From a virus, in the IMG/VR virus record IMGVR_UViG_3300027790_000002: a DNA stretch of 64,000 nucleotides. One strand, 5' to 3'. Shown piece by piece: positions 4,067-25,831 of the stretch. Both the position numbers and the translations under genes were made by a program. Each line of letters starts with the position of its first letter. The stretch's first letter is position 1. Below the pieces are notes generated by a model. It searched no databases. It was not told the origin of the DNA and saw only the letters and a program-made list of their open reading frames with translations.

Positions 4067-4624
4067 ATGAGCGACGATTTGGCGGAAACCCTCAAACCCT
4101 TACAGCAGCTGCCGGACTTGGTGGGCCGGTTGCGCGACGACGGGCTGCCGGACATCTGCAGCGAGGCGGCCAACGAAATTGAGGAATTGCAGGGCTGCTT
4201 CGATATCCGCTGGAAAGCCGATATGCGCGCCATCAAGATGTGGCAGGCGGCGCACCCCGGTAGCGAAAACATCTGGCCGGACCATGCGGAAATGGTCCTG
4301 TGGCTCATGGAACAACTGACAGGCAAAGGAGAAAGCATGGCCTTCAAACCTCTTTACGACCAAGTGCTGGTGAAACTGGAACCGAACAAAAGGGTGACCG
4401 ACGGTGGCATCATCATTCCCGAAGGGGCGCAGGAACAGCCGCAGATTGCGGAAGTGCTGGCCGTCGGGCCGGGCGCACTCAACAGCAAGGGCGTGCGCGC
4501 CCCCATGTCCGTGGCGGTCGGGGACTGGGTTCTTATCAACAAATGGGCCGGCAACGAACTGACCGTGGACGGCGTAAAGGCGCATATTCTGCGCGAGTAT
4601 GACATCATGGGCGTAATCGACTAG
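4067..4624 (+). CDS. groES: GroES (Cpn10) co-chaperonin homolog; 95-aa GroES domain 4337..4624 with in-frame 90-aa N-terminal extension
   Basis: MAFKPLYDQVLVKLEPNKRVTDGGIIIPEGAQEQPQIAEVLAVGPG...VGDWVLINKWAGNELTVDGVKAHILREYDIMGVID aligns along full GroES; strong SD AAAGGAGAAAGC before internal ATG 4337. Confidence 0.75.
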   Translation: MSDDLAETLKPLQQLPDLVGRLRDDGLPDICSEAANEIEELQGCFDIRWKADMRAIKMWQAAHPGSENIWPDHAEMVLWLMEQLTGKGESMAFKPLYDQVLVKLEPNKRVTDGGIIIPEGAQEQPQIAEVLAVGPGALNSKGVRAPMSVAVGDWVLINKWAGNELTVDGVKAHILREYDIMGVID

Positions 4625-10719: not shown

Positions 10720-10796
10720 CAGGGTGTGGCGCAGTCGGTCAGCGCGCTCGCCTCGGAAGCGAGAAGCCGCGGGTTCGAGTCCCGCCACCCTGACCA
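10720..10796 (+). tRNA. tRNA-Pro(CGG)
   Basis: acceptor CAGGGTG/CACCCTG, D GCGC/GCGC, anticodon stem CTCGC/GCGAG loop CTCGGAA, T GCGGG-TTCGAGT-CCCGC, A-CCA. Confidence 0.75.
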
Positions 10797-10833
10797 AATC
10801 CGAAAACAGACCACGACACGGCGCTAAATTTTA

Positions 10834-10911
10834 GCCGCCGTAGCTCAGTTGGTCAGAGCGCCGTCCTTGTAAGCCGGAAGTAGCGGGTTCGAATCCACGC
10901 CGGCGGCACCA
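10834..10911 (+). tRNA. tRNA-Thr(UGU), T stem with bulged A
   Basis: acceptor GCCGCCG/CGGCGGC, loop CTTGTAA, T loop TTCGAAT, A-CCA; one mismatch in anticodon stem. Confidence 0.6.
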
Positions 10912-10973
10912 AAATCCAGAAAGTCAGTACGATGAACAAGCGAAGGGAACACCGAGATATTAGCGCCTGACAA

Positions 10974-11049
10974 GGCGCGATGGTGTCATGGGTTAACATG
11001 GTTGACTGTCCATCAACAGCAACGGGTTCGAGTCCCGTTCGCGCCGCCA
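10974..11049 (+). tRNA. tRNA-Asp(GUC)
   Basis: acceptor GGCGCGA/TCGCGCC, anticodon stem GTTGA/TCAAC loop CTGTCCA, T ACGGG-TTCGAGT-CCCGT, G-CCA. Confidence 0.7.
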
Positions 11050-11064
11050 GTGCAGCAGGGCTTG

Positions 11065-11139
11065 CCCGGCGTAGCTCAGCGGTAGAGCGTCCGGCTGATA
11101 ACCGGAAGGGCGCGGGTTCAAATCCCGCCGCCGGCACCA
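11065..11139 (+). tRNA. tRNA-Ile(GAU)
   Basis: D GCTC-AGCGGTA-GAGC, anticodon stem TCCGG/CCGGA loop CTGATAA, T GCGGG-TTCAAAT-CCCGC, A-CCA; apparent C1-C72 mismatch. Confidence 0.65.
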
Positions 11140-11167
11140 GTTTTCGACAGCAACGCGCCTGAATTGT

Positions 11168-11242
11168 TGGCGCGTAGCTTAGTGGTAGAGCACTTGAATT
11201 TGACTCAAGGGGTCGGCGGTTCGAATCCTCCCGCGCCATCCA
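11168..11242 (+). tRNA. tRNA-Gln(UUG)
   Basis: U1-A72 first pair (GlnRS-type), anticodon stem CTTGA/TCAAG loop ATTTGAC, T loop TTCGAAT, T-CCA. Confidence 0.7.
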
Positions 11243-11308
11243 ACCCTTAAAGGTGAAAAAAATGAGACGACATCACGGGACTTTTCGAGAGCGCAGCGCG
11301 TAAACCGC

Positions 11309-11384
11309 GCAGCCTTCGTCTAGCGGTCTAGGATTCCGGCCTTTCAAGCCGGCGACGCCGGTTCAAATCCGGTAGGCTGCACCA
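11309..11384 (+). tRNA. tRNA-Glu(UUC)
   Basis: acceptor GCAGCCT/AGGCTGC, anticodon stem CCGGC/GCCGG loop CTTTCAA, T GCCGG-TTCAAAT-CCGGT, A-CCA. Confidence 0.75.
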
Positions 11385-11385
11385 T

Positions 11386-11462
11386 CCCGAAGTCGTCTAA
11401 CTGGTCAGGACGCTTGATTGTGGATCAGGAAATTACGGGTTCGAGTCCCTGCTTCGGGACCA
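11386..11462 (+). tRNA. tRNA-His(GUG), alphaproteobacterial type (A73, U at -1, no G-1)
   Basis: acceptor CCCGAAG/CTTCGGG, anticodon stem CTTGA/TCAGG loop TTGTGGA, T loop TTCGAGT, A-CCA. Confidence 0.65.
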
Positions 11463-11559
11463 AACAGAGAACGGTGTAAAAAATGTACGAAGTGTACGGA
11501 ACGTACAAACCGAAACGGAAACGGAACGCTTAGCGCAAGCCAGGCGGGCGTGCGCTTAT

Positions 11560-11637
11560 GGGCGCGCCGCCGTCTGGGAATGGCCACCGGCTTTTAACCG
11601 GTCACCTTGTCGGGTTCGAATCCCACCGCGCTCACCA
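11560..11637 (+). tRNA. tRNA-Lys(UUU)
   Basis: anticodon stem ACCGG/CCGGT loop CTTTTAA, T loop TTCGAAT with bulged C in 5' strand, 3' CGCGCTC-A-CCA. Confidence 0.6.
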
Positions 11638-11699
11638 CCTATTTGTTGGAGTCAACCAAATGGCTAAATTCAGGCGACGGCGACGCAACAGACTGAACT

Positions 11700-11775
11700 G
11701 TGCGCGTAGCTCAATGGACAGAGCCGCCGGCTTCTAACCGGCTCAATGCGGGTTCGACTCCTGCCGCGCACGCCA
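11700..11775 (+). tRNA. tRNA-Arg(UCU)
   Basis: acceptor GTGCGCG/CGCGCAC, D GCTC/GAGC, anticodon stem GCCGG/CCGGC loop CTTCTAA, T GCGGG-TTCGACT-CCTGC, G-CCA. Confidence 0.75.
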
Positions 11776-11778
11776 TGC

Positions 11779-11855
11779 AGCCCCGTGGCGCAATGGACTA
11801 GCGCAGCAGATTACGAATCTGAAGGTTCCGGGTTCGAGTCCCGGCGGGGCCGCCA
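11779..11855 (+). tRNA. tRNA-Arg(ACG)
   Basis: D GCGC-AATGGACTA-GCGC, loop TTACGAA, T CCGGG-TTCGAGT-CCCGG, 3' CGGGGCC-G-CCA; apparent A1-C72. Confidence 0.65.
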
Positions 11856-11862
11856 ATTTCAA

Positions 11863-11938
11863 GCGCGGCTACCTTAATGGACAGAGGGCCGGCTTCCGAA
11901 GCCGGAATGTCGGGGTTCGACTCCCCGGCCGCGCGCCA
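11863..11938 (+). tRNA. tRNA-Arg(CCG)
   Basis: acceptor GCGCGGC/GCCGCGC, anticodon stem CCGGC/GCCGG loop TTCCGAA, T CGGGG-TTCGACT-CCCCG, G-CCA. Confidence 0.75.
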
Positions 11939-11965
11939 TGTCATCATGGCATTTTCAGCGTCCTC

Positions 11966-12202
11966 TTATTTCGCGGCTTTCGGGCCGCAGGCTTTAGTGC
12001 GTTTCGCATCGTTCAGGGCCGCGTCAAGCGACAGCGCCGCGTTGCGAATGTGATCGTCGATCTCCGGCTCTGATAAATCGACGTTGCCGTTCAGGCCCCG
12101 AAGCTGTCGGGAATATTTTTCGATCCGGAGCAGCATTTTTTCAGCCGAAACATTCACTTGGCGGGTCCTTTCATTTAGCGTTCCGCCGGTCGATAGCGGC
12201 AA
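11966..12202 (-). CDS. hypothetical small protein (78 aa), last gene of minus-strand moron operon
   Basis: ORF track; ends ...KAAK* followed by conserved junction GAGGACGCTGAAAATG with no downstream ORF. Confidence 0.4.
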   Translation of the reverse strand: MPLSTGGTLNERTRQVNVSAEKMLLRIEKYSRQLRGLNGNVDLSEPEIDDHIRNAALSLDAALNDAKRTKACGPKAAK

Positions 12203-12401
12203 CCGCTTTCGCGATCCGCTTAACTAGGGAGTCACTGGCTTTGACGCGGGGGCATTTCATCGCCTCTGGCTTTTCGTTTCCAATAGGCCAGTATGCGACC
12301 TTATGAGCATCCCAAACCGGGAGCCGTCGCGAGACTGAAATAATGTGGCCGCCATGCTCAAAGCGGAGGTCGCCGCGCTTGCTCAATCCATAATCAGCCA
12401 T
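12171..12401 (-). CDS. hypothetical small protein (76 aa)
   Basis: ORF track; overlaps neighbours by a few codons. Confidence 0.4.
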   Translation of the reverse strand: MADYGLSKRGDLRFEHGGHIISVSRRLPVWDAHKVAYWPIGNEKPEAMKCPRVKASDSLVKRIAKAVAAIDRRNAK

Positions 12402-12669
12402 CGGCCGGTCCTCTTATTTCGGGTGGCGTCGGCGCGTTCATCCAATGTGTCGCAATCCCGTCGCCGCCGTCGTCTTCTGAATCGAATCTCACCGGCAAAA
12501 TGTTTCCATGGCGGTCAACCATGGCCTGACGATCTTCGTCGAACCAGCAATCAATGTAGCGCTCGCCGCGCAAATAATCTGCGCTAACGACGGCCCAGAC
12601 ATCAACCTTTTGTCGGTTTCTGGGGACGGTTGAAATCGGCTTCCATACGCTCACTTCGCGGGTCCTCAA
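12394..12669 (-). CDS. hypothetical small protein, DUF551-like (WKPIS...)
   Basis: ORF track; probable TTG/GTG start after GAGGAC SD. Confidence 0.4.
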   Translation of the reverse strand: MRTREVSVWKPISTVPRNRQKVDVWAVVSADYLRGERYIDCWFDEDRQAMVDRHGNILPVRFDSEDDGGDGIATHWMNAPTPPEIRGPADG

Positions 12670-12920
12670 AATACGTCGTCTTCGAGCGGTTCATATTCGG
12701 GAGGATCTGCCAAGATCGCCGCTTCGATCTTCGTCCATTCGTCGTCGGTGAGGCTTTCGCCTTCGGGCAGTCCGTAAACCGTTTTTTCAAATTCGATCTC
12801 GACCGGATCGCCGGGCATCCAGCAACCGCCCGCGAAGTAGTCTCCGCCGCCGCCATTTAGCCGATAGCAGACCATGACTTCTGTCCCGTCGGCGCGCGTA
12901 AAGTCATGATTGAATGACAT
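12666..12920 (-). CDS. hypothetical small protein (84 aa)
   Basis: ATG 12920 preceded by conserved TAATAAGAGGACGCTGAAAAATG junction. Confidence 0.45.
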   Translation of the reverse strand: MSFNHDFTRADGTEVMVCYRLNGGGGDYFAGGCWMPGDPVEIEFEKTVYGLPEGESLTDDEWTKIEAAILADPPEYEPLEDDVF

Positions 12921-12937
12921 TTTTCAGCGTCCTCTTA

Positions 12938-13234
12938 TTACGCGGCCTTGTCGGCCTGTTTTGGTTTCGCATCTGGAAACCAGCTTTCGAGATCGTCGAG
13001 CGCCCATTTCAGGCCGGTGATCTTACCGCTCACGCTGGATCGGCGAGCCGCGTCAAAGCTGCACTCTGGAATTTGATTCAGGGCTTGCGTCTGATTGTCG
13101 ATGAGGTTGCGCAGCCTGTCGCCAAGACGACCGGCGCGCTCGGCAATCTCGGCTTTGAACTGCGCCGTCACTGCCGCCTTCGCTTGGCGCTCGATGTCGC
13201 GCTCGCGGGGCGTATAGAGAGATTCATCAAGCAT
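12938..13234 (-). CDS. hypothetical small protein (98 aa)
   Basis: ATG 13234 preceded by TAAGGACGCTGAAAATG junction. Confidence 0.45.
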   Translation of the reverse strand: MLDESLYTPRERDIERQAKAAVTAQFKAEIAERAGRLGDRLRNLIDNQTQALNQIPECSFDAARRSSVSGKITGLKWALDDLESWFPDAKPKQADKAA

Positions 13235-13304
13235 TTTCAGCGTCCTTAGATTTGCAGCCGCGCGACGCGGCCGTCGGGGTGACGTTCATTTTATTGGTCC
13301 TTTC

Positions 13305-13884
13305 CTCACGCCTTCCGGCCGAGCTTTCGCGCGGCGGCCTTCCGGCTGATTGTTGCTTCCGAGACTTTCCACTTGCGCGCCATCTGCGGGATGCTGATCG
13401 CGTCGTCTTTCCAGTCCCGATCAAACTGCGCCCATGCGGCGCGATCAAGGTCGGCGAGGGCCTTCGGGCGCCCGCCGGGGTTTTTCTTGTGCTTCTCCGA
13501 GCCGCGCGCGTTCGCCGTCTGCGCCTGGCGCTTGTCGCGCGTCAGCGCCTTCGCAATCTTGGCATGGCTTTCGTCGGCGGTGAAATTCTCGGCCATATCA
13601 ATCACATAAACGCTGGCGCGCTGGTCCGTCACGGCGGCGAGAACGCTGAACAAGTCGCCCGCATTCGCCGCAAGGTGGAGCGGTGACAACACGCACAATT
13701 CGTCGCCGGGCCGCAGGATGGCGATCAGGTCGGCGCGTTCCGGGCGCGGGTCTTCGTCCGGGCGCGGTTTCCGCTTCCAGACCTTCTCCGCGATGATCTT
13801 GGCCGCGCCGACATCGGCGAGGGCTTCGCGCTGTTCCTCGACGGAAGCGCCCGCCTTGATCTTGGCCACATATCCAAATCGCAT
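13305..13884 (-). CDS. serine-recombinase (resolvase/invertase) family protein, N-terminal catalytic motif degenerate, C-terminal HTH
   Basis: MRFGY... start; GDELCVLSPLHL...DLFSVLAAV resembles resolvase core; ISIPQMARKWKVSEATISRKAAARKLG is the resolvase-type HTH; canonical RVST-xx-Q serine not evident. Confidence 0.5.
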
Positions 13885-14070
13885 AATTCACGCCTGCAAA
13901 ACTAGAACAGCTATTGACTTTTGACAAGAGGTTTTGATAAGAGGTTAAGAAGCGGGGTTTTGACGCTTATGCGCCGATTCCGCCGATGTCTTCAGGAACT
14001 ACCGCGCAGGGGTGCGCAAGCGCGGCGCCGCCCGCAAGGATAACCAAGGCGACACCCCACAGGAGGCAGG

Positions 14071-14280
14071 ATGTATCTCGAAGTTGACCATCTCCACACG
14101 AACCGCGAGGGCATGGGGTTTTGTTGTCCCCATTGCCTGCAAATGGGTTTTGATGGCCGCGCTGACAGTGACGAATGGCAAGAGGTCAAGTGCTCAGAAT
14201 GCGGTGAGCCTTTTGCAATTCGCGGCGTCGTCACCGTCGAAGGGCAGAGCGGTGTCATTAACGACCGCATAGAAGATTAG
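14071..14280 (+). CDS. small zinc-ribbon-like protein (CCPHC...CSEC)
   Basis: ORF track; SD AGGAGG. Confidence 0.35.
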   Translation: MYLEVDHLHTNREGMGFCCPHCLQMGFDGRADSDEWQEVKCSECGEPFAIRGVVTVEGQSGVINDRIED

Positions 14281-14389
14281 TCACGAGAGGCACCTTAAAG
14301 TCTTTTGTTGACGGCGCCGCGCTTTGGCCGTAGGTCGGCGCCATGACCCCAGCCGCTTCCCATAACCGATATCGCCGCCCGTAGGTTCC

Positions 14390-14476
14390 GGGCGAGTATG
14401 CAAGCGGTCGAAGCGAGCGGGCTGTAACCCCGCACATTGGAAACGTCGGGGGTTCGAATCCACCCCTCGCCCACCA
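14390..14476 (+). tRNA. tRNA-Tyr(GUA), class II (long variable arm)
   Basis: acceptor GGGCGAG/CTCGCCC, anticodon stem GCGGG/CCCGC loop CTGTAAC, T loop TTCGAAT (3' strand CC-A-CCC bulge), A-CCA; 87 nt. Confidence 0.65.
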
Positions 14477-14662
14477 TCTGCAAATTCAGGATATTTTATT
14501 CAAATCTTATTCACGGTTGACAGTGTCAACGGCGCGCGCCTAGATGGTCCTTGATTTGCACCGCCGCAGGAAGTCCGCCTGCGGAATGACACGGCCAACG
14601 GGAGTAAGGACACATGAAAAACGGTCTGAACATCGCGATATTATGGCGACTCTCGAATTTTG

Positions 14663-14739
14663 GCGCGTGTAGCTCAGTCGGTAGAGCCGCCTCCTCATAA
14701 GAGGTAGGGTCGCAAGTTCAAGTCTTGCCACGCGCACCA
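14663..14739 (+). tRNA. tRNA-Met(CAU), elongator or Ile2-type (no GGG/CCC in anticodon stem)
   Basis: acceptor GCGCGTG/CACGCGC, D GCTC/GAGC, loop CTCATAA, T GCAAG-TTCAAGT-CTTGC, A-CCA. Confidence 0.7.
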
Positions 14740-14741
14740 AT

Positions 14742-14816
14742 AGCGGTGTCCGTCTAATGGTAAGACAGCAGTCTCCAAAACTGAAAATGTGGGTTCGATT
14801 CCCGCCGCCGCTGCCA
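14742..14816 (+). tRNA. tRNA-Trp(CCA)
   Basis: loop CTCCAAA, T GTGGG-TTCGATT-CCCGC, 3' CGCCGCT-G-CCA. Confidence 0.65.
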
Positions 14817-14819
14817 AAT

Positions 14820-14900
14820 CCCCCCGTGGGCAAATTTTGGTAAAGTCACCGGTCTTAAAAACCGGCAGCGTTGCGGGTTCGAGTCCCGCCGGGGGGACCA
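14820..14900 (+). tRNA. tRNA-Leu(UAA)-like, atypical: class-II-type D arm but short (7 nt) variable loop
   Basis: acceptor CCCCCCG/CGGGGGG, D GGC-AAATTTTGGTAAA-GTC, anticodon stem CCGGT/ACCGG loop CTTAAAA, T GCGGG-TTCGAGT-CCCGC, A73-CCA; 81 nt. Confidence 0.55.
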
Positions 14901-14907
14901 ACCACAA

Positions 14908-14984
14908 GGGCTCGTAGCTCAGCCTGGGAGAGCAACGGTTTTGCACGCCGCAGGTCGTCAGTTCAAATCTGACCGGGTCCACCA
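14908..14984 (+). tRNA. tRNA-Ala(UGC)
   Basis: G3-U70 wobble identity pair present; GCTCAGCCTGGGAGAGC D arm; loop TTTGCAC; T GTCAG-TTCAAAT-CTGAC; A-CCA. Confidence 0.75.
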
Positions 14985-14989
14985 GCAAC

Positions 14990-15069
14990 GCCTCGCTGGG
15001 CAAATTTTGGTAAAGTCGTCTGATTTAGGATCAGAAGTTTTCCCGGTTCGAGTCCGGGGCGGGGCACCA
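14990..15069 (+). tRNA. tRNA-Leu(UAG)-like, atypical (same D arm as 14820 tRNA, 6-nt variable loop)
   Basis: D GGC-AAATTTTGGTAAA-GTC identical 22-nt to other Leu-like; anticodon stem TCTGA/TCAGA loop TTTAGGA; T CCCGG-TTCGAGT-CCGGG; A-CCA. Confidence 0.55.
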
Positions 15070-15145
15070 CAAAACAGCGCGGCAAGATCCCGCGCAATGA
15101 AAGGTTAGAACGATGCCAGACGATTCAAGTTCGTCCAGCGAGAAA

Positions 15146-15231
15146 GGAAGGGTGGCAGAGCGGTAATGCAGCGGCTTGCTAAGCCGTAGGGCCTCATGGT
15201 TCCGCCGGTTCGACTCCGGCCCCTTCCGCCA
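15146..15231 (+). tRNA. tRNA-Ser(GCU), class II
   Basis: acceptor GGAAGGG/CCCTTCC, loop TTGCTAA, long variable arm, T GCCGG-TTCGACT-CCGGC, G-CCA. Confidence 0.7.
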
Positions 15232-15235
15232 ATTT

Positions 15236-15321
15236 GGAGGGCGCCGCTCGATGGTAGGCAACCGGTCCCGAAAACCGGGGTGGCGTTCGCGTCAGTGGTT
15301 CGACTCCGCCGCCCTCCGCCA
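15236..15321 (+). tRNA. tRNA-Ser(CGA), class II, apparent C33
   Basis: acceptor GGAGGGC/GCCCTCC, anticodon stem CCGGT/ACCGG loop CCCGAAA (cf E. coli serU CTCGAAA), T loop TTCGACT, G-CCA. Confidence 0.6.
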
Positions 15322-15396
15322 AATTCAGAACCTTTTGAGGTCGGCTGGCCAACGGGCTGCAGACTGAAACGCCCGGGCCTTCCTCAAAGGGTTTGC

Positions 15397-15471
15397 CGCG
15401 CGGTAGCTCAGCGGTAGAGCGCCGGTTTGAAGGGCCGGGCGTCGTGGGTTCAATCCCCACCCGCGCAACCA
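15397..15471 (+). tRNA. tRNA-Phe(GAA)
   Basis: D GCTC-AGCGGTA-GAGC, loop TTGAAGG, T GTGGG-TTCAATC-CCCAC, 3' CCGCGCA-A-CCA; apparent C1-A72. Confidence 0.65.
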
Positions 15472-15514
15472 TGTTAATTTTCGCCCCCTCATTTGAGGGC
15501 GAAAAAATGAACAC

Positions 15515-15590
15515 AGGGGCGTAGCTCAGTGCGAAGAGCGGCTGTTTTACACACAGCGGGTCGCGGGTTCGATTCCTGCCGCCCCCACCA
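15515..15590 (+). tRNA. tRNA-Val(UAC)
   Basis: anticodon stem GCTGT/ACAGC loop TTTACAC, T GCGGG-TTCGATT-CCTGC, 3' CGCCCCC-A-CCA. Confidence 0.7.
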
Positions 15591-15595
15591 GTTTC

Positions 15596-15668
15596 GCGGG
15601 CTTCCTCCAGGTGAGGTAAGGGCCTTCCAAGCCCCCACGGTCGGGTTCGAGTCCCACAGTCCGCTCCA
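15596..15668 (+). tRNA. tRNA-Gly(UCC)
   Basis: U73 discriminator and TCCA end typical of Gly; loop CTTCCAA; T loop TTCGAGT with bulged C. Confidence 0.65.
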
Positions 15669-15673
15669 GTTTT

Positions 15674-15750
15674 TGGGATAGGGCCCCGCTGGTAGGGGCG
15701 CATGGCTGTTAACCATGTCGCTGCAGGTTCGAGTCCTGCTATCCCAGCCA
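15674..15750 (+). tRNA. tRNA-Asn(GUU)
   Basis: acceptor TGGGATA/TATCCCA, anticodon stem CATGG/CCATG loop CTGTTAA, T GCAGG-TTCGAGT-CCTGC, G-CCA. Confidence 0.7.
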
Positions 15751-15751
15751 G

Positions 15752-15825
15752 GCGCGGGTGTCCGAGTGGCAAGGAGCCGGATTGCAACCCCGGTTAGAGC
15801 GGTTCGATTCCGCTCCCGCGCTCCA
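15752..15825 (+). tRNA. tRNA-Cys(GCA)
   Basis: acceptor GCGCGGG/CCCGCGC, loop TTGCAAC, T AGCGG-TTCGATT-CCGCT, U73-CCA as in Cys. Confidence 0.7.
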
Positions 15826-16065: not shown

Positions 16066-16515
16066 GCAATGACGCAGAAACCCTTGCTGGCGGCCTATCT
16101 CGCCGCCGCCGATTTTGAGCATGCTTTCAGGGCGTTGCTGCTGCAGCACGCACAGCACCTTTTCCCGAATATCAGCATCGTTATAACGCTGACGGTTTAC
16201 GCGATGGCCAACGGCGTAAAGACGCCGGCGGACCTCAAACGCTGGCGCGCCTGCACCGGCGCCAACGCCAATTATTCCTGTATGCAGTCCGTCAAAGCCG
16301 GCTTTATCACGATGTGCGACAACCCGGATGATGCCCGCTCAAAGCGGCTGATTTTGACCGAACAGGGGCATCTGCTGGCTGACCATTTGCGGGGCGTAAC
16401 GGACAAGCAATTCACGATGCTGGAAAAATTCACGCCGGCGATGGCGCATTTGCCTGACATCACCAAGCTGCTGCGGGAAATGGTCGATTACAAAATGCCG
16501 ATGGAATGGCGCTAG
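16066..16515 (+). CDS. putative MarR-like winged-helix regulator
   Basis: internal ATG of ORF 16018..16515; SKRLILTEQGHLLADHLRGVTDKQF resembles MarR wHTH. Confidence 0.4.
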   Translation, partial: AMTQKPLLAAYLAAADFEHAFRALLLQHAQHLFPNISIVITLTVYAMANGVKTPADLKRWRACTGANANYSCMQSVKAGFITMCDNPDDARSKRLILTEQGHLLADHLRGVTDKQFTMLEKFTPAMAHLPDITKLLREMVDYKMPMEWR

Positions 16516-17897
16516 TTAAACACGACGTCGCTGAACGGCAACGCGATTTTCTGCAGCTGGGCCGCCTTCCATTCCATGCTGACTCCACCGCCATATTGCG
16601 GCCGTTTGACCGCGTGGCCCATGAACTCCGCCCGTAATTCTGCGTCCAATCCTGCCTCCTTCATGCGGTCTTCAAAGGAATGGCGCAGCGAATAGACCAC
16701 ATGGGCGCCGGACGGCATGAGGCCGCGGTCACGCATTTCTGACAGCAGCAGGTCGGACAGTTCCTTTTCGTTTTCCCGCCAGGCGGGAAACCCTTGCGGG
16801 TTCCGGCGCATCGCCGCCAGCGATACGCCGACCAGCGGGACGCGGCGCGCCGAGCTCCGCGTCTTGATTTCCCGGCCTTCGCGCGGGCGAATGTCCAGAT
16901 AAGGGGCCCAACCGTCCGGTTTTTCGCCGCCGGCGTCCAGTTTTATGGCCTCACTGTTCAGATTGGCGACTTCGCCGGGCCGCGCGCCGGTTTCAATCAG
17001 AATTAACAGGATGTCGCGGGCCTGTGCGTCCATGCCGGCAAGCGCCCCGGGCGCAAGGATCCTGTCGCGAATCCATGCGGTCGGAAAGGGCGGGCGGCGC
17101 TGCTGCTGGCCGCCCTTGAATTTCAGCCCGTCAAACGGGTTGCCGCCGTCATAATCCGGCGCGGTCCATGCCATATATTCGCGGAACAGCTGGCGCATGT
17201 TGCCGAGATCCCGCGCCGCAGTCGCCGGTGTGATTTGCCCGGCGTCGATACGCGCTTGCAGCCAGCGGTGGAACTGGCGGCCGTCGGTGCGTGTGACCGC
17301 GCCCAGGCCTTTGTCCTCGCCTATCGCTTTCAGGAAATTGTTAACCGCCCGCGTCTTCACCTGCCGCCATTTGCGGTATTGTTTCGGGCTTTTTGAGCGG
17401 CGTTGCCCCGCCTCGATTTCTTCCAGATACAGCCGAAACGCCGACCGCACGCTATCGGAAAGCGCCGGCGCGCCGCCCAAGAGCGCCTCCACCATATCCG
17501 CTGGCGGCAGCCCGTCACGGGGGCTGGTGGCGTGGGCGCGCAGGGCGTCCAGCCGCGCCAGCAGCCCCTCGAGCGGGCCGGCGGCGATGTCTTCGGCGTC
17601 CTGATACTCAAACCCCAGCGCCAGCGCCCGCTGCGCCGCCGCCTCGCGCGAGGCCCGGGCGATTGCCGCAGGGCCTGCGTCCAGACCGGCCCAGTAGGCG
17701 TCGTCGGCGGCTTCCAGTTCGTCGCGCATGGTGCGGGCGCGCGTAACGTCGGCGGTGCCAAGCCCGCAGCGAATGAGCGGCGCGCGTTCGTCCAGCAGCG
17801 CCAGGCGCGCCGGCACGCGACGCCTGTAGAACCAGCGGCCTTTTCGGCGCTGCAAATATCGGTTGGGGTCCGTCATCACCGCCGGCGGCTTCGCCAT
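16512..17897 (-). CDS. int: tyrosine recombinase / phage integrase
   Basis: C-terminal VYSLRHSFEDRM...MGHAVK...Y matches R-HxxR-Y catalytic box; convergent with MarR-like gene. Confidence 0.85.
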   Translation of the reverse strand: MAKPPAVMTDPNRYLQRRKGRWFYRRRVPARLALLDERAPLIRCGLGTADVTRARTMRDELEAADDAYWAGLDAGPAAIARASREAAAQRALALGFEYQDAEDIAAGPLEGLLARLDALRAHATSPRDGLPPADMVEALLGGAPALSDSVRSAFRLYLEEIEAGQRRSKSPKQYRKWRQVKTRAVNNFLKAIGEDKGLGAVTRTDGRQFHRWLQARIDAGQITPATAARDLGNMRQLFREYMAWTAPDYDGGNPFDGLKFKGGQQQRRPPFPTAWIRDRILAPGALAGMDAQARDILLILIETGARPGEVANLNSEAIKLDAGGEKPDGWAPYLDIRPREGREIKTRSSARRVPLVGVSLAAMRRNPQGFPAWRENEKELSDLLLSEMRDRGLMPSGAHVVYSLRHSFEDRMKEAGLDAELRAEFMGHAVKRPQYGGGVSMEWKAAQLQKIALPFSDVVFN

Positions 17898-21238: not shown

Positions 21239-21865
21239 TCATGCTTGCTGGCTTTCTGGTTTTTCCACCTCTAGGTCCAGACGCCCAGCCAGCACGGCGT
21301 CAATGACCTTGGCCATATCGCTGCCAGGCGCCGTTTCATTCGCGCGAATGTCAGTTATCAGCCAGCGACCCTCCGGCAGCGGATAGTGCATAACGTCTGG
21401 GCGCCCATATCCAAAGCTGCAGCTGACCGAGTTCTGGTTTATGTAAACCGTCGATTTCCAAGAAAAGACTGCATGCGGAAGGCCGGCGCGGTCCGCCGCA
21501 ATGGCAAGTGTTTGGCAGGGATTGTAATCGGTCGAAAGATAGCATTCCAAACTATATGTCGGTTCAAATCGCAGTTCTCGGTCGCCCCAAAATTCTGCGC
21601 GGTCTGCCTCGCTCATAGGCTCGCCTTCGTGGTCACGGCTATATTTCAAAATAGCGATTAGTTCGGTCCTGAATTTCTCCACCGCTGCCGGGAAATCCTC
21701 GACTTTTTCCAATGCGGCTTTCAGGTTCATGGCGGCCAGCCCTTCGGTCATAACACCCTGAATACTGTTGTCCCCATTGTCGTATTGCGTGCTTTGTATG
21801 GCACGCGCCCAGATTTCTGCGGCGCGTTCGATTAGGCGGTCATCAATCTGCTTTTTATCTCTCAT
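21239..21865 (-). CDS. hypothetical protein (208 aa)
   Basis: ORF track. Confidence 0.45.
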   Translation of the reverse strand: MRDKKQIDDRLIERAAEIWARAIQSTQYDNGDNSIQGVMTEGLAAMNLKAALEKVEDFPAAVEKFRTELIAILKYSRDHEGEPMSEADRAEFWGDRELRFEPTYSLECYLSTDYNPCQTLAIAADRAGLPHAVFSWKSTVYINQNSVSCSFGYGRPDVMHYPLPEGRWLITDIRANETAPGSDMAKVIDAVLAGRLDLEVEKPESQQA

Positions 21866-22377
21866 GGTCTTCCCTCATACGGTTGCGGTTCCAGTGACTT
21901 AGGCAAATAAAGCGGGTGGGCCGGGTGGCCTTTTTCCGACACGCGCAGGGCTTTAGGTTTCAGGTGGCCAATCCACCCCAGCACGGTTTTGTCTTGATCC
22001 ATAAAGGCGCCGTGGTTGCCCCATGCGCAAATGATGGCGCCTTTGACGCCGTAGGCTTCCCAGCCGTGAATGGCGTAGTCGGCGGCTTCCTCAATATAGC
22101 GGGCGTTTTCCGGGCCCACGGGATCCTGCGCGGCTTTCATGTCGGCGGGGCTGGTGGCGCGGAACGCAAAAAGATTGGTGACAATCAGCTCGCCGAAGCC
22201 CCACGCTTGCGCGTAACCGATGCACCGGCGAATGGTGGGGTCGTCTTGGCGCGCATCGGCGGTGGACGGGTTCAGCATGATGAAATTCACGCAGCCCGCC
22301 GACAGGCCCACATTGCGCTGCAGCCGGTAGCGATAGCGACCGCAGGACGATATGACGGCGTCATCGGCCAGCATCAA
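21862..22377 (-). CDS. DUF1643-family protein
   Basis: RYRYRLQR...VNFIMLNPSTAD...DDPTIRRC...NLFAFR...AWGNHG...HPLY matches the DUF1643 conserved blocks. Confidence 0.65.
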   Translation of the reverse strand: MMLADDAVISSCGRYRYRLQRNVGLSAGCVNFIMLNPSTADARQDDPTIRRCIGYAQAWGFGELIVTNLFAFRATSPADMKAAQDPVGPENARYIEEAADYAIHGWEAYGVKGAIICAWGNHGAFMDQDKTVLGWIGHLKPKALRVSEKGHPAHPLYLPKSLEPQPYEGRP

Positions 22378-25376: not shown

Positions 25377-25411
25377 AACGCCTGAACGCGTCTAATTGCT
25401 CCCGTGCGGGA

Positions 25412-25790
25412 ACTGAAAACGGGGCGCGCCGAAGCGCCGCCCCGTCCCGGTCTTCTGTTGCCAGGCGACCAAACCCCGTGAAATTACGCCGCGAGGCGCT
25501 GTTCCACAAAATTGCCGTTATCGTTGGCAGTTCTTAAAGTCGGCTTATACGCGGCCAACCGGCGTTCTCAGCTTTCGTTTCACCGTCTGTCGAACCCAAA
25601 TCGGCCCCATCAAGAACGCATCCCAAGGCGGGTTTGGCGCAGGGCATTTTCAACCCATCCACCCGCGGGGCAGGACCGACAAGCGGCGCCGCCACCCCAG
25701 ATGCGCTCTTGGTGGAGCCGGCGGGAATTGAACCCGCGTCCAGTCCAGCTACGCCAAAGCGTCAGCGAGCGCGGCGGAAGGGTAGCATCG
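25412..25790 (-). ncRNA. ssrA: tmRNA (ssrA), two-piece circularly permuted alphaproteobacterial type; tag ANDNGNFVEQRLAA
   Basis: minus strand GGACGCGGGTTCAATTCCCGCCGGCTCCACCA (25738-25707) nearly identical to the E. coli tmRNA 3' T-arm/acceptor, but no 5' acceptor partner upstream; downstream at 25528-25484 reads GCC AAC GAT AAC GGC AAT TTT GTG GAA CAG CGC CTC GCG GCG TAA; ~380 nt precursor size fits two-piece ssrA. Confidence 0.7.
25419..25459. terminator. GC-rich hairpin, candidate bidirectional intrinsic terminator
   Basis: ACGGGGCG...CGCCCCGT stem followed by TCTTCTGTT on plus and GTTTT on minus; sits between Tat-protein gene and tmRNA 3' end. Confidence 0.5.
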
Positions 25791-25831
25791 AATTTTTCAC
25801 GAAAAAAGGTCTGTTTTCGTGAAATTCGGAC

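Follow-up and report, generated by a model that had tools for sequence, protein, structure and literature searches.

Two type I leucine tRNA genes within the tRNA array of a temperate siphophage-like element

The window analysed here is a 64,000-nucleotide stretch of the IMG/VR virus record IMGVR_UViG_3300027790_000002, itself lying within a metagenome contig of 73.9 kb (ENA ERZ27250866 k141_2343337). It encodes a large terminase, a portal, a major head protein, a minor tail protein, a helicase and an integrase, and among the tail genes an ORF of 2056 aa probably encodes the tape measure; from these genes we take the whole to be a temperate siphophage-like element of ~74 kb. An identical terminase is present on seven contigs of the collection. 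No near-identical DNA was found in cultured phages, and the terminase is at most about 40% identical to those of cultured phages, the nearest being Pseudomonas and Moraxella phages.

Most tRNA genes of the window are gathered in two sub-arrays on the + strand (Table 1). At its default setting ARAGORN predicts one tmRNA and 25 tRNA genes across the window, and the two sub-arrays account for 23 of the latter, every one with an encoded CCA. A low-scoring tRNA-Gly is recovered only at a relaxed threshold, and Rfam gives a weak tRNA-Sec-like match (21.9 bits) at the same site. Once it is counted, the array comprises 24 tRNA genes in 5.1 kb (10720-15825) and covers all 20 amino acids. It has the size and density of a tRNA array unit as defined by Tran et al. 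(2016; PMC4758250), with 20 or more tRNA genes and a density of at least two per kb.

Table 1. Coordinates of tRNA, tmRNA and associated features in the window.
Feature	Coordinates	Strand	Remarks
Host-like regulator/chaperone ORFs	2061-2453; 4067-4624; 21862-22377	+; +; -	
tRNA sub-array 1	10720..11938	+	11 genes: Pro, Thr, Asp, Ile, Gln, Glu, His, Lys, three Arg
Serine-recombinase-like small ORF	13306-13884	-	Resolvase N-terminal domain, E 3e-7; between the sub-arrays
tRNA sub-array 2	14390..15825	+	12 genes + (Gly): Tyr, Met/Ile2-like, Trp, Leu, Ala, Leu, Ser, Ser, Phe, Val, (Gly), Asn, Cys
CAU tRNA called Met	14663-14739	+	Probably tRNA-Ile2
tRNA-Leu(UAA), type I	14820..14900	+	81 nt including encoded CCA (ARAGORN); parse: CCCCCCG UG GGC-A AAUUUUGGUAA A-GUC A CCGGU CUUAAAA ACCGG CAGCGUU GCGGG UUCGAGU CCCGC CGGGGGG A CCA
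21-nt block TGGGCAAATTTTGGTAAAGTC	14827..14847	+	U8-G9 and D arm of tRNA-Leu(UAA); exact-match search of the window
tRNA-Leu(UAG), type I	14990..15069	+	80 nt including encoded CCA (ARAGORN); parse: GCCUCGC UG GGC-A AAUUUUGGUAA A-GUC G UCUGA UUUAGGA UCAGA AGUUUU CCCGG UUCGAGU CCGGG GCGGGGC A CCA
21-nt block TGGGCAAATTTTGGTAAAGTC	14997..15017	+	U8-G9 and D arm of tRNA-Leu(UAG); identical to the block in tRNA-Leu(UAA)
tRNA-Gly(tcc), low-scoring	15596-15668	+	ARAGORN relaxed threshold only; fills the sole gap in sub-array 2
Tyrosine-type integrase	16512-17897		Directly downstream of the array
Permuted tmRNA, alphaproteobacterial type	25393-25811	-	Rfam alpha_tmRNA, 78 bits; tag ANDNGNFVEQRLAA
Isolated CAU tRNA with C73	27415-27492	-	Near the tmRNA

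Isotypes were scored with profile HMMs that we built from ~2,100 anticodon-labelled tRNAs of viral loci (these are not the tRNAscan-SE models), after masking the anticodon and cutting out the variable region of each input sequence. The CAU tRNA of sub-array 2 that is called Met scores 40.8 with the Ile profile vs 29.4 with Met, and is probably a tRNA-Ile2 read through lysidine. The isolated CAU tRNA near the tmRNA scores 42.3 with Pro vs 33.1 with Met and is 91% identical to the terminal tRNA of an array on a Dehalococcoidia-binned MAG contig (L291). The integrase downstream of the array is uninformative about the array, since none of 52 related prophage loci has a tRNA array, and the 210-aa ORF upstream of the array has no relatives in viral contigs.

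The host is probably an alphaproteobacterium, as judged from the alpha_tmRNA match, a Ros/MucR homologue, homologues of GcrA and GapR, and a G+C content of ~59%. The Ros/MucR gene is accompanied in the window by two other host-like genes, one for a 185-aa protein with a Cpn10 domain at its C-terminus and one for a DUF1643 protein, and the GcrA and GapR homologues lie just upstream of the window in the source contig (L295); the host-like regulators and chaperone are consistent with an alphaproteobacterial host. Similar tmRNAs adjoin tRNA arrays in Erythrobacter phage vB_EliS-L02 (L293 5309-5717) and in the Dehalococcoidia-binned contig (L291 597-1009; tag ANDNDAFVEYALAA).

The only leucine tRNAs of this otherwise full set are two genes in sub-array 2, with anticodons UAA and UAG, which a first-pass annotation of the DNA had picked out as having the D arm of a bacterial tRNA-Leu and the variable loop of a class I tRNA. 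ARAGORN and Rfam agree on both, with Infernal scores against the tRNA model (RF00005) of 53.9 bits for tRNA-Leu(UAA) and 48.3 bits for tRNA-Leu(UAG), above the gathering score of 29, and with matches to model positions 1-71 of 71. The cloverleaves are complete, with seven acceptor pairs, 5-bp anticodon and T stems, a T loop of UUCGAGU and, as had been noticed, A73. The D stem is likewise the predicted 3 bp (G10-C25, G11.U24 and C12-G23), followed by an A13.A22 mismatch. Position 26 is A in tRNA-Leu(UAA) and G in tRNA-Leu(UAG), and position 37 is A and G, respectively. The variable loops are CAGCGUU (7 nt) and AGUUUU (6 nt), each ending in U48, and neither ARAGORN nor Rfam assigns a long arm.

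The D arms of the two genes are identical, as the first-pass annotation stated, within a shared block that measures 21 nt and not the 22 nt it had counted, and which occurs exactly twice in the window. The D loop carries two extra U residues ahead of G18G19, and the stretch from position 8 to position 26 is 22 nt in both genes vs 18-21 nt in the window's remaining tRNAs. Long arms are retained by the array's Ser (86 nt) and Tyr (87 nt) genes, with variable regions of 15-16 nt, showing that the short loops are specific to leucine and no quirk of the gene caller. Minimum free energy folding returns a rod for both genes and not a cloverleaf, with a gap of 4.1-4.5 kcal/mol; we discarded this as evidence, because the minimum free energy fold is a cloverleaf in only one of the 25 window tRNAs and the energy gaps of the array's other tRNAs are similar.

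The long variable arm had been described as universal in bacterial tRNA-Leu, which does not hold. Fan et al. (2019, NAR; PMC6614811) report that the LeuRS of Streptomyces coelicolor leucylates that organism's own short-loop (type I) tRNA-Leu(CAA) in vitro, and a search for similar genes, as the first-pass annotation had proposed, shows short tRNA-Leu genes to be annotated in cultured phages and common in viral contigs and tRNA arrays. In Mycobacterium phage Myrna, tRNA-Leu genes are annotated at 76 and 74 nt and another at 83 nt, Streptomyces phage NootNoot has a tRNA-Leu(caa) of 77 nt, and Erythrobacter phage vB_EliS-L02 carries 31 tRNAs and a permuted tmRNA, including a short tRNA-Leu(CAG) and a short tRNA-Leu(UAA). 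When IMG/VR was scanned with a pattern for short-loop genes resembling tRNA-Leu(UAR), at least 120 matches were obtained, and ARAGORN, run on the loci listed, identifies at least 184 well-paired short-arm Leu genes in at least 112 viral contigs among them, including genes with CAA, GAG and AAG anticodons that lie outside the pattern's selection. Among the matches listed, the Ser and Tyr tRNAs of the same loci are long-armed, and a long-arm tRNA-Leu is also present in the fetched stretches of 23 of the 112 contigs.

A second IMG/VR scan that allowed either arm length gave 17 short-arm and 103 long-arm genes among the 120 matches listed, so that ~14% are short-armed in what is a rough sample; some of the long-arm matches may be host genes at prophage borders. 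Type I tRNA-Leu is almost confined to phages and mobile arrays, and the supposed uniqueness of the two window genes reflects a textbook generalisation that fails for these elements. The literature searched, with few subscription journals among it, contains no description of phage type I tRNA-Leu that we could find, nor a paper discussing short-arm tRNA-Leu in tRNA arrays, and as late as 2023 a review describes the long arm as universal except in animal mitochondria (PMC9976931). Short-arm tRNA-Leu is thus a known but under-reported kind of tRNA, of which the two window genes are a further example.

Within this kind, the window genes belong to a distinct subfamily with the signature UGGRCAAA(N2-4)GGYAAAGUC in the D arm, a variable loop AGUUNU and A73; its variable loops are 6-7 nt long and end in U48. 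The exact 21-nt block has no match in IMG/VR or GTDB genomes and recurs in a single metagenome contig (L278; AT-rich, with 40% G+C, and otherwise unrelated), in a short tRNA-Leu(UAG) whose D arm equals that of the window's tRNA-Leu(UAG) and whose variable loop is AGUUAU. A relaxed motif finds several viral contigs, Myrna gene 81 and phage L02. Scanning 185,579 species genomes for the signature gave 14 loci of 35-75% G+C, distributed over Actinomycetota, Bacteroidota, Pseudomonadota, Armatimonadota, Cyanobacteriota and a Dehalococcoidia MAG, and all but one of the 14 lie inside tRNA arrays of 4-34 genes.

In an alignment of 22 distinct members, from genomes spanning 35-75% GC, A73 is invariant, and the D arm, U48 and the T loop show little or no variation. 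The acceptor, anticodon and T stems covary; over the stems, 99.3% of cells are paired, and compensatory changes are seen in 16 of 20 pairs. None of 500 shuffles reaches the observed covariation score, and pairing falls to 32-52% when the partners are slid. The two window genes are part of a widely spread lineage of type I tRNA-Leu in phages and mobile tRNA arrays.

Among the members of the subfamily, the window's tRNA-Leu(UAA) alone has a UAA anticodon, and it departs from the others in its 7-nt loop. Its anticodon arm and A26 are identical to those of a tRNA-Leu(UAA) in a Pseudomonadota MAG (L283 5153-5229) belonging to a second short-arm subfamily; the D arm, on the other hand, matches exactly that of its neighbour 170 bp away. 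The gene may be a chimera generated by gene conversion or recombination with the neighbouring tRNA-Leu(UAG).

In L278 (1395-1745) four tRNA-Leu genes lie in a row, two long-armed and two short-armed, and in an Armatimonadota MAG (L284 19-629) there are seven in a row, with long and short arms mixed. A type I tRNA-Leu adjoins a tRNA-Ala in the window (14820-14984) as well as in the chromosomal arrays of actinobacteria L279 (3773-3928), L281 (3853-4016) and L290 (6971-7127), and in phage T5 Leu(UAG) adjoins Ala(UGC). The Leu/Ala adjacency, common to the window and to Micromonospora and Verrucosispora arrays, suggests a movement of array segments among widely differing hosts.

With the anticodon masked, both genes score as leucine tRNAs. 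For tRNA-Leu(UAA) the short-arm Leu profile gives 42.9 and the long-arm Leu profile 36.7, with Glu the best non-Leu profile at 30.6; for tRNA-Leu(UAG) the corresponding scores are 29.1 and 22.7, with Gln the best of the others at 18.4. The triad A14/A15/U48 is present in 179 of 214 type I Leu genes (84%) and 155 of 164 type II Leu genes (95%) from viral and array loci, where A15/U48 occurs in 476 of 1602 other class I tRNAs (~30%). The anticodon loops agree with this assignment. An A36-A37-A38 run after a UAA anticodon is the context of UUR readers, and G36-G37 in a UAG tRNA is the m1G37 context of CUN readers; tRNA-Leu(UAA) and tRNA-Leu(UAG) fit the first and the second, respectively. Both genes also contain the complete E. 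coli leucine identity set, with A73, U8-A14, the A15-U48 Levitt pair, G18G19 and A20a; as given by Giege and Eriani, that set consists of A73, A14, the A15-U48 Levitt pair, G18G19 and A20a (PMC9976931).

Other synthetases are poor candidates for charging these tRNAs. AlaRS identity resides in G3-U70, which is absent from both parses, and SerRS requires a long arm. Most synthetases apart from LeuRS, SerRS and AlaRS read the anticodon (PMC11028032), and with neither G3-U70 nor a long arm present LeuRS is the only plausible charger. The anticodon and the long arm are dispensable for E. coli LeuRS, and a minimal armless tRNA-Leu is still charged (PMC9976931). The position of G18G19 matters for this enzyme, and the two extra U residues ahead of it in the window genes are a point against their charging. 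However, the S. coelicolor type I tRNA-Leu(CAA) is not charged by the LeuRS of E. coli or of S. purpurogeneiscleroticus, and it is the leucine-specific domain of LeuRS that decides acceptance (PMC6614811). The failure of these two enzymes indicates that not every bacterial LeuRS accepts type I tRNA-Leu, and the likely proteobacterial host of the window would count against taking LeuRS charging of the two tRNAs as certain. The result of Fan et al. does not simply carry over in either direction, as the tRNA they tested, judged by its loop (ACAGC, with C48), probably belongs to another subfamily. Charging by LeuRS is the main uncertainty in the interpretation that we favour.

Leucine codons make up 8.8% of the codons in the predicted ORFs of the window, with shares of 49% for CUG, 17% each for CUU and UUG, 11% for CUC, 4% for CUA and 3% for UUA. 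With standard U34 wobble the two tRNAs match 73% of these codons, and with expanded U34 reading they could cover all six. The first-pass annotation had asked whether codon usage demands the two genes. We considered a supply of rare codons and rejected it, the genes being part of a full 20-amino-acid set and matched to most leucine codons; with CUG at 49% and UUA at 3%, they are not a rare-codon supplement. The annotation had also offered suppressor tRNAs and decoys. Suppressor anticodons are CUA, UUA or UCA, complementary to the stop codons, whereas UAA and UAG, written 5′ to 3′, pair with UUR and CUN codons, which excludes the suppressor reading; the decoy reading found no support. Its third suggestion, functional minimalist leucine tRNAs, is supported by the Leu-like body, the identity set and the conserved, covarying subfamily.

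We consider it likely that the two genes encode functional phage leucine tRNAs of type I, forming the leucine part of the 24-gene array, a conclusion drawn from sequence comparison, which shows their gene structure, conservation, covariation and identity elements. For expression, modification, charging and decoding we infer the following. The tRNAs would be transcribed with the rest of the array on the same strand and processed by host enzymes, with the CCA end already encoded in the sequence. The conserved positions suggest an L-shaped core held by U8-A14, the A15-U48 Levitt pair and the contact of G18G19 with the T loop, in which the variable loop of 6-7 nt and the long D loop would stand in for the missing arm. 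Host LeuRS would then charge both tRNAs through A73 and the D/T-loop core with no need for the arm, as the literature on LeuRS suggests. tRNA-Leu(UAA) would read UUA and UUG, and tRNA-Leu(UAG) would read CUA and CUG and, with U34 modified or not, probably also CUU and CUC, so that the pair may serve all six leucine codons.

An addition to this explanation, which accepts the leucine assignment, is that the missing arm is an adaptation in its own right, letting the tRNAs escape RNases of host defence or toxin systems that recognise or cut the long arm or class II shape, so that leucine codons are still translated once host tRNA-Leu has been destroyed. There is a precedent in Septu and retron-Eco7, which cut the variable arm of class II tRNA-Tyr, whereas the tRNA-Tyr of T5 has another variable loop and is resistant by virtue of it (PMC13096335), and phage tRNAs and tRNA arrays have been discussed as anti-defence devices (PMC10264068; PMC12803027). 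The near restriction of type I tRNA-Leu to phages and mobile arrays, and the presence of a long-arm Leu gene in only 23 of the 112 short-arm contigs (fetched stretches, among the matches listed), would fit. However, the literature searched yields no nuclease that targets the tRNA-Leu arm, the Ser and Tyr tRNAs of the same arrays keep their long arms, both types of tRNA-Leu lie side by side in L278, L284, L291 and L293, and nothing in the window links the two genes to a defence system. We regard arm escape as unlikely.

Considerably less probable is that the tRNAs are not leucylated at all, acting as uncharged decoys or regulators, or being charged by another synthetase with partial recoding of leucine codons. 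The failure of E. coli-type LeuRS on one type I tRNA-Leu (PMC6614811) and the unusual length of the D loop speak for this, but the leucine identity elements are conserved across hundreds of such genes, the anticodon-loop contexts at A37 and G37 match UUR and CUN readers, and loss of charging would leave an otherwise complete set with no tRNA for leucine; the features demanded by SerRS and AlaRS are wanting too, and most of the other synthetases apart from LeuRS read the anticodon (PMC11028032). That the genes are decaying type II tRNA-Leu pseudogenes with the arm deleted is barely credible, for although loops of 7 and 6 nt are longer than the normal 4-5 nt and could be what a deletion left behind, each of the four stems pairs perfectly, the CCA end and T loop are intact, and 22 distinct genes of unrelated genomes repeat the architecture and the AGUUNU loop with compensatory changes in their stems.

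Returning to functional type I leucine tRNAs, a broader proposal is that the fixed core of D loop and variable loop (UGGRCAAA..GGYAAAGUC with AGUUNU) functionally replaces the class II arm in a lineage that spreads horizontally and whose lack of an arm is favoured by selection. We hold this to be improbable. An arm-less tRNA-Leu could go unnoticed by host RNases or by other factors that bind class II tRNAs through recognition of their shape or, alternatively, could be a substrate for LeuRS enzymes across many phyla and act as a leucine adaptor with a broad host range. It would also follow that LeuRS enzymes of Proteobacteria other than that of E. coli accept type I tRNA-Leu, contrary to the only published test. 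More generally, a sizeable minority of the tRNA-Leu genes of phages and mobile arrays, across many phyla, are short-armed with a conserved core signature, raising the questions of which bacterial LeuRS charge them and why mobile elements favour the design. As the literature searched yielded no paper on the subfamily, and the 2023 review calls the arm universal, the pattern may deserve a short study of its own. In annotation, a short tRNA-Leu found in a phage should not be discarded as an artefact.

The two tRNAs can be compared with several known systems. Conventional type II tRNA-Leu, as in E. coli and T5, shares with them A73, U8-A14, A15-U48, G18G19-U20-A20a, the 3-bp D stem with a purine 13-22 mismatch and the m1G37/A37 contexts, and differs by having a long variable arm (11-17 nt), which they lack. 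Phage T5 was considered as an experimental anchor and set aside, its tRNA-Leu(UAG) being of type II and 85 nt long. Animal mitochondrial tRNA-Leu resembles the window genes in having no long arm and in resting its identity on A73 and A14 (PMC9976931), but is organellar, often degenerate and unrelated in sequence, and is not charged by ScoLeuRS (PMC6614811).

The S. coelicolor type I tRNA-Leu(CAA) is, like the window genes, of bacterial type with a short variable loop. It needs at least five loop nucleotides including nt 48, and U8-A14 is important (PMC6614811); the window loops have 7 and 6 nt, U48 included. Its loop is ACAGC with C48, in contrast to CAGCGUU and AGUUUU with U48, and, compared by loop alone, it resembles a second subfamily seen in arrays of actinobacteria (ACAGT, TCAGC) and not that of the window. 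It is chromosomal whereas the window genes are phage-borne, A73 is not an identity element in that system (PMC6614811), and its leucylation has been assayed, the window tRNAs being known here from their genes.

The tRNA array units described by Tran et al. (2016; PMC4758250) and Morgado and Vicente (2018; PMC5966550) are also carried on mobile elements and have tRNAs that differ from the chromosomal copies; unlike the units compared, the window array sits in a 74 kb temperate siphophage-like genome. The closest parallels are in cultured phages. The short Leu genes of L02, Myrna and NootNoot all lie in phage tRNA arrays, as in the window, and in L02 a permuted tmRNA adjoins the array. These phages are otherwise unrelated to the window, with no DNA match; their anticodons are CAG or CAA as opposed to UAA and UAG, and the window D loop has one or two U more than theirs. 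The L02 and Myrna genes share with the window genes the D-arm motif UGGGCAAA..GGYAAAGUC, a 6-nt loop AGUUYU and A73, and the tRNA-Leu(CAG) of L02 is near-identical, with the same T arm as in the window and a D arm that is one U shorter.
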